IMG/VR virus record: IMGVR_UViG_3300024999_000087
Source of the DNA: an uncultured virus (IMG/VR IMGVR_UViG_3300024999_000087)
Lineage: Duplodnaviria; Heunggongvirae; Uroviricota; Caudoviricetes
Length of the DNA stretch: 20,000 nt
Direction: 5' to 3' (one strand)
Below the pieces are notes generated by a model. That model was given only the letters and a program-made list of their open reading frames with translations. It was not told the origin of the DNA and did no database searches. Both the position numbers and the translations under genes were made by a program. This document shows positions 16,070 to 17,062 of the stretch, in pieces. Numbering within the stretch: the stretch's first letter is position 1; each line of letters begins with the position of its first letter.

Positions 16070-16246
16070 TCACTTCACCTCTTCCTGAGAAATTACAAAG
16101 GTAAACTTGCGCCCGTAGTCAGAATTGCAGTCATATCCTATTTTGTCGAGTTCCTTCTTAGTCCACCCGCTTACGCAAGCGTCGTCCGAGTAATCCCACA
16201 GCAGGTTCAGCGCGTCTTGTACATTCTGGGGCAGGTTTATGAACAT
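16070..16246 (-). CDS. Hypothetical protein
   Basis: 58 aa, not in the track ([22 protein letters not shown]...SQEEVK). TGATG overlap upstream; abuts the next ATG. Confidence 0.7.
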   Translation of the reverse strand: MFINLPQNVQDALNLLWDYSDDACVSGWTKKELDKIGYDCNSDYGRKFTFVISQEEVK

Positions 16247-16443
16247 CACTTGACCTCGATTTTTTTGATAATGTGATTCATCCTAGCCCACCCCTGCGTA
16301 TGCCACATGACCTCGCAAACATCGGGATACCTGTATGCAAGACTGTAATGCGTAGCGCCCTTCGGAATTGGCGATGATCCGGCATTCTTCCGCGTGTGAA
16401 ATTGCGGATGATTGTTCTGCATGGTGTAGTGGCGGGGTTTCAT
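16246..16443 (-). CDS. Hypothetical protein
   Basis: 65 aa, starts 1 nt after the Gly-X ORF stop. Confidence 0.6.
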
Positions 16444-16444
16444 A

Positions 16445-16624
16445 TCACCCGTGCCCGTGCCCGTCCCCGTCCCCGTGCCCGTGCCCGTCCCCGTGCCCGT
16501 ACCCGTGCCCGTGCCCGTCCCCGTGCCCGTCCCCGTCCCCGTCCCCGTCCCCGTACCCGTACCCGTACCCGTCCCCGTGCCCGTACCCGTACCCGTACCC
16601 GTCCCCGTGCCCTATGCCTTCCAT
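16445..16624 (-). CDS. Gly-X repeat peptide MEGI(G[H/D/Y])27G
   Basis: 59 aa, not in the track. ATG lies inside the upstream gene's GTA-TGG codons, SD-like AAGGGG upstream, TGA at 16445-16447. Confidence 0.65.
16448..16612 (-). repeat. Hexamer tandem repeat (GGG[C/G/T]AC)27 plus GGG
   Basis: 27 units: 10 CAC, 10 GAC, 7 TAC. Confidence 0.98.
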
Positions 16625-16983
16625 ACCTTTACCCCTTTGATCGACTTAATAGCGGTCTCGGTACATGGGATGATCTCAATAGCCTCGGTCAGTGTCAGTG
16701 CAGGTAATTCACAGGGGAATTTACACTCATCAGGCTTTGACACCCCATCAACCGCCAACTGAGACAGAGACGCTGCACCTTTCCAGAACCACAAACGGCG
16801 GGAATTGATCAGCAAAACCTCTTTGCCATCTCGTTTCTTCAGGTATCCAGCATGAACCCCTGCGGAGTACGTCCTAACGATGACATACGGCATTCCGTCA
16901 ACCGTTTCGGCCAATCCTGCGACCTTCCTGACATACTCAACGCCATTGATCGTTATTGTTTCGATTTTATCTTGTGTTTCCAT
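16612..16983 (-). CDS. DUF6948-like phage protein
   Basis: '[15 protein letters not shown]......[19 protein letters not shown]' and 'EAIEIIPC' recognised as that family's pattern; RBS GAGGTGA. Confidence 0.8.
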
Positions 16984-17033
16984 TTTTCACCTCGTTAATT
17001 GTTGAAAGTTTCCGCTCCATTGAAATTCATACC

Positions 17034-17062
17034 AGCATACACTATATAGCGCATAATTGCAA
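17034..17062 (-). promoter_or_regulatory. Sigma70-type promoter for the DUF6948 operon
   Basis: TTGCAA-17 bp-TATGCT; the spacer contains the near-palindrome CGCTATATAGTG. Confidence 0.65.

Follow-up and report, generated by a model that had tools for sequence, protein, structure and literature searches.

Results

A small predicted barrel protein of the DUF6948 family and a peptide in which glycine alternates with a second residue (Gly-X), opened from a start codon inside the end of the barrel gene, almost certainly form a genuine coding unit of phages. The original prediction had left two readings of this module side by side, a two-component system and a readthrough fusion, and it is the two-component reading that is well supported, by a conserved frame, a conserved start, a ribosome-binding site and a gene linkage that holds in both directions.

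The gene pair in the window

The window, the 20-kb stretch of DNA analysed here, forms the last part of a contig of 71,808 bases (G000:C1:51809-71808). On its minus strand the DUF6948 gene (16612..16983) encodes 123 amino acids predicted to fold as an Sm/LSm-like five-stranded barrel, and ahead of it the sequence offers a Shine-Dalgarno-like GAGGTG (16988..16993, minus strand). Pfam PF22253 matches the protein with an E value of 3.7e-31 and 107.5 bits against a cut-off of 27, over profile positions 2-85 of 85. The Gly-X gene (16445..16624, minus strand) lies in the -1 frame and overlaps the barrel gene by 13 nt; its ATG at 16624 sits within GTA-TGG, the barrel's last Trp codon, and its TGA stop is at 16445-16447. 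A second Shine-Dalgarno-like word, AAGGGGT (16631..16637, minus strand), stands 6 nt 5' of this start, still within the barrel gene. The sequence agrees with the claim that an ATG in the barrel's last codons opens a 59-residue peptide, MEGI(GX)27G, and the overlapping start likely couples translation of the two genes.

As had also been claimed, X in the window is only His, Asp or Tyr, in the order HDYYYHDYYYDDDDHDHHYHDHHDDHH (10 His, 10 Asp and 7 Tyr), an order and unit number taken from one assembly, as the contigs of the four public DNA runs break at the repeat. The polymer is encoded by the hexanucleotide array (GGGNAC)27 (16448..16612, minus strand), all of whose units read GGG-NAC. No tandem array occurs in the window apart from this one (period 6, 27.5 copies), and no second long Gly-X run is present anywhere in the 71.8-kb contig. 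Many of the other contigs collected (L001-L080, L249-L368) end in or next to the Gly-X array, so that short-read assemblies probably give too low a count of this gene and cut it short.

The next gene of the operon, a 65-aa ORF (ORF65; 16246..16443, minus strand), lies outside the pair. Gene junctions downstream of the polymer are tight (TGA-T-ATG, TGATG, TGA-ATG and ATGA), and the first of them joins the polymer to ORF65, which starts one base past the Gly-X stop, as would be expected if the Gly-X frame is translated. In the barrel gene, 24 of 33 strain differences fall at third codon positions. An exact DNA search for relatives of the junction gave no match in viral contigs, its closest metagenome relatives being 70-75% identical, and neither the polymer nor ORF65 was present in an exact look-up in the protein collection. 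No RNA runs holding the region are listed among the public sequencing runs.

Probable promoter and exchange slot

The DUF6948 gene had been credited with its own promoter, and this prediction is supported by a phage-wide variant of the -35 box and by a promoter geometry that recurs at the corresponding position of a second, diverged copy of the region. The likely promoter, TTGCAA-17 nt-TATGCT (17034..17062, minus strand), has a consensus score of 8 out of 12, below the scan threshold of 9, and so went unlisted. The pattern TTGCA-N18-TATAAT, chosen post hoc, occurs at three sites in the contig, all on the minus strand (G000:C1:42267-42295, 62911-62939 and 63889-63917, the last two at window positions 11103-11131 and 12081-12109), where 100 shuffles average 0.04, so that the window promoter probably belongs, as one of the weaker members, to a family of phage promoters. 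A looser pattern that covers the window site finds 6 sites against 2.1, a number reached in 3 of 100 shuffles. A perfect TTGACA-type site is found nowhere in the contig, and the three sites suggest that the TTGCA box is preferred by the host's housekeeping sigma or by the window phage.

The second copy is the contig's first 8 kb (G000:C1:1-8073, L167), a diverged version of window positions 12740-19995, the last 7 kb, with 91.5% identity over primase and helicase. In place of the barrel and repeat it carries an unrelated 83-aa hydrophobic ORF, followed by a relative of ORF65 that is 58% identical and has its own ATG. As an unrelated gene replaces the whole pair, the pair appears to be exchanged as a block. 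A 20-bp site (17087..17106, no strand assigned) is identical in the second copy (C1:4533-4552) and, from this comparison, appears to be the upstream edge of the slot. Small genes are also swapped in the second copy, with an HNH gene between. The duplicated contig ends may come from two related phages assembled into a mosaic, or from a true duplication. The same phage encodes another repeat protein, in a DUF7666 plus pentapeptide-repeat gene (G000:C1:16471-17304; L168:972-1805, minus strand).

Conservation of the pair across phages

Gly-X peptides had been said to follow this family in other phages, and they do. Among 61 distinct rows, drawn from 80 viral loci and the window, the ATG in the barrel's last Trp codon recurs in 60 and a Gly-X run follows it in 59; one of the two exceptions is degenerate and the other carries a looser run, in a different frame. 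When the DNA downstream of the homologues was translated in its several frames, as had been suggested, only the Gly-X frame was conserved. A Gly-X gene accompanies 71 of the 80 DUF6948 loci in the genome collection (63 in the -1 frame, 6 in the +1 frame and 2 in the barrel's frame with an ATG of their own), and the nine misses comprise five early contig ends, one parsing error and three short or degenerate runs. Metagenomic loci, 80 before 18 duplicates were removed, gave 57 of 62 with the gene, four cut and one without. Of 129 homologous Gly-X starts, 107 have a Shine-Dalgarno-like word ahead of them, compared to 16 at a control position.

The linkage also holds when it is read from the polymer. 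A DNA pattern for Gly-X units retrieved 120 viral loci, from which 3 duplicates and 26 with too little upstream DNA were set aside, and DUF6948 lies upstream in 85 of the 91 assessable loci. Four of the six without it carry a paralogous barrel and the other two show none. The pair is visible in six phage records, five of them annotated and one not, even where the Trp codon has been lost, and in phage Taid it stands isolated between opposite-strand genes. No third conserved neighbour gene was found among 171 loci, where neighbour clusters consist of replication and recombination genes only and reach at most 18 of 171 (SSB-like by eye).

Barrel and polymer are occasionally fused in frame, in 7 of 323 proteins (four with the polymer C-terminal, three N-terminal) and also in phrog_18306, most of these fusions coming from single contigs and possibly being frameshift errors. 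Public records treat the polymer unevenly. The Gly-X gene of Iodobacter phage phiPLPE (L081:1173-1409) is missing from its annotation, the annotation of phage CV-1-33 (L084:2337-2582) uses the TAG-proximal wrong frame for the repeat, and the GenBank name for the partner in Ralstonia phage NK-7 is 'fibroin heavy chain-like'.

Alphabet, codons and length of the polymer

Among 3415 units from 125 loci, the commonest X residues are Ser (34.5%), Tyr (28.3%) and Asp (23.4%), followed by Asn (3.7%), Phe (2.8%) and His (0.9%), with Thr and Glu under 1% each. The codons of Ser, Tyr and Asp interconnect by transversions, and the single-step neighbours His, Cys and Pro, reached by transitions, as well as Ala, are each around or under 1% of X. 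This rarity of transition neighbours suggests that selection acts on the peptide. Loci vary in the Gly codon that dominates (GGC in 95, GGT in 18, GGA in 7 and GGG in 5). Read in the shifted frame of the barrel, the same loci give 17 different dominant dipeptides, and 29 of 125 run into a stop within 12 codons; it is the Gly-X frame that is conserved.

Acidic residues make up a median of 24% of X, and the composition suggests that the polymer is disordered. Length is free, from 8 to 60 units. The barrel searches gave 383 matches, and after removal of 57 duplicates, 11 short cores and 30 without 10 readable units, 285 pairs remained. Within the 210 pairs that omit loci retrieved by DNA patterns, Tyr or Phe is absent from one and Asp or Glu from three. 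Tyr and Asp are thus the constant residues and the third, His in the window, is free. His-rich polymers occur in 6 of the 285 pairs, four of the six having been retrieved with a His pattern, and the polymer of the window, with its His, is a rare local variant.

Fast change is seen among Rheinheimera barba phages, where 8 near-identical isolates, among 115 records, have an identical barrel end and four polymer alleles that differ by one unit or one residue. In the main text of the barba paper (PMC6715854) there is no mention of a repeat, of gp017 or gp018, or of the term proteomic.

The barrel and its paralogue

The model of the barrel (pLDDT 90) consists of a five-stranded core with a helical insertion that separates strand 3 from strand 4, a C-terminal helix (109-117) and a low-confidence hairpin at the N-terminus; it lacks the helix that precedes strand 1 in Sm proteins. 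In structural comparison the top 37 rows are all Sm/LSm-type, the best with Lsm1-7 (Z 7.0, rmsd 2.0, 60 residues aligned), and the model scores Z 6.2 against the cyanophage-type 3by7 and 3.9 or less against Hfq. As a Z of 7.0 is below 8, the level that the tool places above a common arrangement, this points to a likeness of fold with homology unproven. The best Foldseek E value is 0.019. A profile search of PDB sequences with the barrel matched no solved Sm protein, its sole match being a galectin at E 1.4.

Sm proteins assemble into rings by way of strands 4 and 5, and their RNA-binding pocket motif of loop L3 is fuller than its Asp alone. Published descriptions, in the parts available, give Sm proteins a conserved Gly in the bent strand 2 and an Asp of loop L3 in the RNA-binding pocket (PMC3710371). 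In the barrel, Gly46 of strand 2 (model strand 43-52) is kept in 96% of one subfamily and 100% of the other, and the L3 Asp is not conserved, positions 49-54 being variable with at most 20% Asp at position 52 in DUF6948. Conservation in both subfamilies is concentrated on an Arg in the loop between strands 1 and 2 and on Arg, Trp, Gly and Leu in the L4 insertion. The core is mildly basic, with a median net charge of +2 (range -13 to +10). An enzyme role was considered and set aside, as no candidate catalytic residue is common to both subfamilies; Cys87 and Glu103 are confined to DUF6948. On the model, we describe the barrel as resembling an Sm-type binding module and do not file it as a member of the Sm/LSm family. 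Neither NCBIfam nor PADLOC holds a family that matches the pair. DUF6948 itself comprises 6389 clusters at 90% identity and 2718 at 50%, found in phages or phage-like contigs whose bins represent many bacterial phyla as well as some archaea.

The diverged paralogue aligns to DUF6948 at 93.8% probability by hhalign (E 1.7e-7), has no family match in Pfam and forms one clade on a quick tree. It also travels with a Gly-X gene, in 53 of 56 distinct loci (61 minus 5 duplicates; 51 downstream and 2 upstream), with two having none and one cut. The two subfamilies use different alphabets: in the 210 pairs just mentioned, which omit loci retrieved by DNA patterns, polymers beside DUF6948 are 36% Ser, 30% Tyr, 23% Asp and 3% Asn, and those beside the paralogue 41% Tyr, 35% Asp, 12% Asn and 5% Ser. 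Ser-rich polymers accompany 154 of 162 DUF6948 barrels compared to 8 of 48 paralogues. The shift maps to one clade and hence to a single evolutionary event, so that it may reflect shared ancestry instead of co-adaptation. In four loci (L262, L292, L383 and L434) two to four tandem Gly-X genes surround one paralogous barrel gene; by eye, L292 and L383 adjoin AAA-type or vWA-type genes, and L262 adjoins a pentapeptide-repeat gene.

Domains fused to the polymer

In 28 of the 61 rows (L036:2561-3028 and 27 others) the polymer continues in frame into a C-terminal domain of 150 aa with an invariant WH-x-x-LTGSC-x-x-GR, known from 3427 clusters. Wherever the DNA extended far enough, polymer and barrel preceded this domain without exception: its 80 loci divide into 49 with both, 23 with the polymer on a short contig, one too short and 7 duplicates. 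It has no family in Pfam, NCBIfam or PADLOC. The model is confident (pLDDT 94), with a best Foldseek E value of 0.21 and a best Z of 6.2 to an EF-hand-like lobe over 67 residues, and hence without a clear fold match that would give a functional clue. A second C-terminal domain, ending in GPL-x-LC...LHAT, follows the polymers of L269, L272, L305, L314 and L353. N-terminal extensions occur in L284, L364 and L382 (a GAC-containing helix-like cap; an AADWLED-like motif), and the label TIGR02996 for that of L382 proved unsupported at 12.7 bits against a cut-off of 29.

Discussion

We propose that the barrel binds the Gly-X polymer, which would serve as a detachable, nucleic-acid-like ligand that controls it. 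The polymer would mimic single-stranded RNA or DNA, Tyr standing for bases and Asp for phosphates, through Arg-Asp and Arg/Trp-Tyr contacts with the surface of a barrel that would itself oligomerise. It might then compete with nucleic acid for the barrel, or, carried by the barrel, serve as a decoy for nucleic-acid-binding proteins of the host, and slippage by 6-nt units would tune its length and valency with the frame intact. The analogy is with the acidic tail of Hfq, which acts in cis, whereas the phage polymer would act in trans. That Tyr and Asp of the polymer bind the conserved Arg/Trp surface is fairly probable; to the whole chain, from binding to control by a nucleic-acid mimic, we give a probability of roughly 0.4.

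Consistent with this chain are the obligate two-way pairing, the exchange of the pair as a block without a third conserved neighbour, the constraint at the level of the peptide with its constant Tyr and Asp, the change of length by whole units, the occasional in-frame fusions at either end, and the Sm/LSm-type predicted fold with Arg, Trp and Gly kept in both subfamilies. Several observations weigh against it. The structural scores are low (Z 7.0, below 8; Foldseek E 0.019) and accompanied by no sequence match to a solved Sm protein, the L3 Asp is not conserved and the basic character of the barrel core is mild. One third of X is neutral Ser or Asn, and the window polymer has 10 His that a polyanion mimic would not need. 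The alphabet shift is confined to one clade, where common descent may account for it, the majority of the fusions are from single contigs, and no neighbour gene indicates a target.

A different possibility, which we regard as doubtful, is that the polymer self-assembles, as flat Gly-faced beta-sheets or a Tyr-driven condensate, with the barrel nucleating, capping or dissolving the assembly and the fused domains displayed as cargo. Such a scaffold would be in keeping with the strict alternation of Gly, with about 30% aromatic X, with a length free to range over 8-60 units, with fusion to several unrelated domains at either end (the 150-aa domain among them), with tandem polymer genes around one barrel gene and with a possible likeness to silk and to [G/S]Y[G/S] low-complexity domains. 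However, the high Asp content disfavours self-assembly at neutral pH, and some polymers have only 8 units.

We think it unlikely that the polymer is a diversifying counter-defence, a ring-borne mimic of single-stranded nucleic acid deployed against host defences that sense RNA or ssDNA. Here each dipeptide would stand for one nucleotide (Tyr the base, Asp the phosphate, Gly the spacer), an Sm-like phage ring would deploy the polymer alone or with fused cargo domains, slippage would rewrite it every few generations and the barrel subfamilies would read different polymer alphabets. If true, such polymers would represent a hitherto unseen class of diversifying counter-defence, found across thousands of phage lineages.

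Two further readings have little probability in our judgement. In the first, the barrel would be toxic or a host-takeover factor that the coupled polymer neutralises, much like a toxin and its antitoxin. These roles would explain obligate pairing, and the near-absolute two-way linkage, the coupling by overlap, the block exchange and the lack of a third partner all fit them, but no catalytic residue is common to both subfamilies, nothing in PADLOC or NCBIfam matches, and a slippage-prone repeat of free length would be an unusual antitoxin gene. In the second, equally improbable, the Ser/Tyr/Asp/His array would soak up a host modifying enzyme (a kinase, nucleotidyl- or ADP-ribosyl-transferase) or a metal, with the barrel stabilising it. 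Most X residues can be modified or bind metal, the window version is rich in His and Asp, and the few His-rich polymers of the family are in line with such a sink. Against it, Asn substitutes for Ser in the paralogue, Thr and Glu would be equally suited yet are nearly absent, and a modifying enzyme is never a conserved neighbour in the 171 loci. Metal binding by the variable peptide had been among the original suggestions; as His is only 0.9% of X, binding through His is rejected as the purpose of the family.

Programmed readthrough of the barrel's TAG into a barrel-(Gly-Thr)27-ORF65 fusion, the other original reading, is highly improbable. The description it was built on holds: past the TAG the barrel frame of the window reads (Gly-Thr)27-Gly-Asp and stays open, in phase, into the 65-aa ORF, and variation in that frame is synonymous. 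Since GGGNAC is free of stops in every frame, the link to ORF65 needs a mere 1-in-3 coincidence of phase; that all variation falls on the Gly wobble base is true in the window, but is a mere side effect of the GGG-NAC units this phage uses. Neither the frame nor its product is conserved elsewhere, phiPLPE has three consecutive stops, and the identity of the barrel's stop codon differs among loci. ORF65 belongs to a small family (five viral loci and the second copy, 53-59% identity) with no match in Pfam, PHROG or NCBIfam. None of the four viral relatives with upstream DNA has a repeat or barrel there, nor does the second copy, and all four have a Met shortly before the match, which makes ORF65 an independent gene. 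A search for a suppressor found no tRNA genes in the contig, and TAG ends 10 of the 53 ORFs of at least 150 aa, long structural-type genes among them, some of these ORFs being shadows. A neutral microsatellite behind a conserved gene is scarcely credible: fast slippage among the barba isolates and the absence of the peptide as a called protein would suit it, but start, ribosome-binding site, frame and alphabet are conserved despite different codons, the array continues in frame into folded domains, and the homologues, which had been expected to lack the repeat or a conserved frame if this were so, keep both.

Returning to the barrel and its putative Gly-X ligand, the literature searched, which left subscription papers and supplements outside its scope, contained no description of the pair, nothing on DUF6948 or TIGR02996, and nothing on a phage glycine-rich peptide with an Sm-like protein or on bacteriophage Gly-Tyr low-complexity repeats. 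A separately encoded, slippage-tuned putative ligand of an Sm-like fold appears to have no counterpart in print, and we found no known system that combines these parts in the way proposed here. The barrel is a clear member of Pfam DUF6948 (PF22253), a family with no function on record whose model covers neither the partner gene nor the paralogue subfamily. Despite the size of that family, the Gly-X partner is routinely overlooked or called in the wrong frame.

The closest likenesses are partial. Silk fibroin and Gly-Tyr low-complexity domains also place Gly at every second residue with Ser or Tyr between, and the [G/S]Y[G/S] low-complexity domains recall the polymer in the same way. The likeness is compositional only, as the phage polymer, unlike silk, is short, strongly acidic and obligately paired with a folded barrel. 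With toxin-antitoxin systems the pair shares two coupled small genes that move as a block, and unlike programmed readthrough systems it has no conserved open frame or product behind the barrel's stop in the barrel frame and no suppressor tRNA. Sm/LSm proteins and the putative cyanophage Sm-like pentamer 3by7 share its predicted five-stranded bent barrel, strand-2 Gly and long L4 insertion, according to the parts available of the source on 3by7 (PMC3710371), in which a partner polymer is not described. The phage barrel as modelled differs from them in having a C-terminal helix and no N-terminal one, in its unconserved L3 Asp and in conservation centred on the L4 insertion.

The Hfq proteins come nearest in plan, as far as the available parts of the two reports go. 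The Hfq of Acinetobacter baumannii joins an Sm core to a Gly-rich aromatic repeat, GGFGGQ, whose copy number matters (PMC11617691), and differs in that its tail is covalent, its unit has six residues, its acidic residues are at the tip only and it serves as a host RNA chaperone. In E. coli, the acidic disordered C-terminal tail of Hfq is reported to mimic nucleic acid and to compete for basic residues on the ring (PMC5606850), a combination of Sm-type core and disordered acidic peptide that is predicted here as well. Unlike that tail, the phage peptide is nearly always a separate gene, runs as Gly-X over 8-60 units and is rich in Tyr, and the phage barrel has no sequence match to Hfq and only the low structural score given above. 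If the proposed mechanism is true, the pair would represent a type of phage control module not described before, and a tractable one, with two small genes, natural length alleles and cultured phages, growing on harmless hosts, in both subfamilies (phiPLPE and the 115 barba records), in which the role that Hfq's tail plays in cis would be played by a detachable partner in trans.
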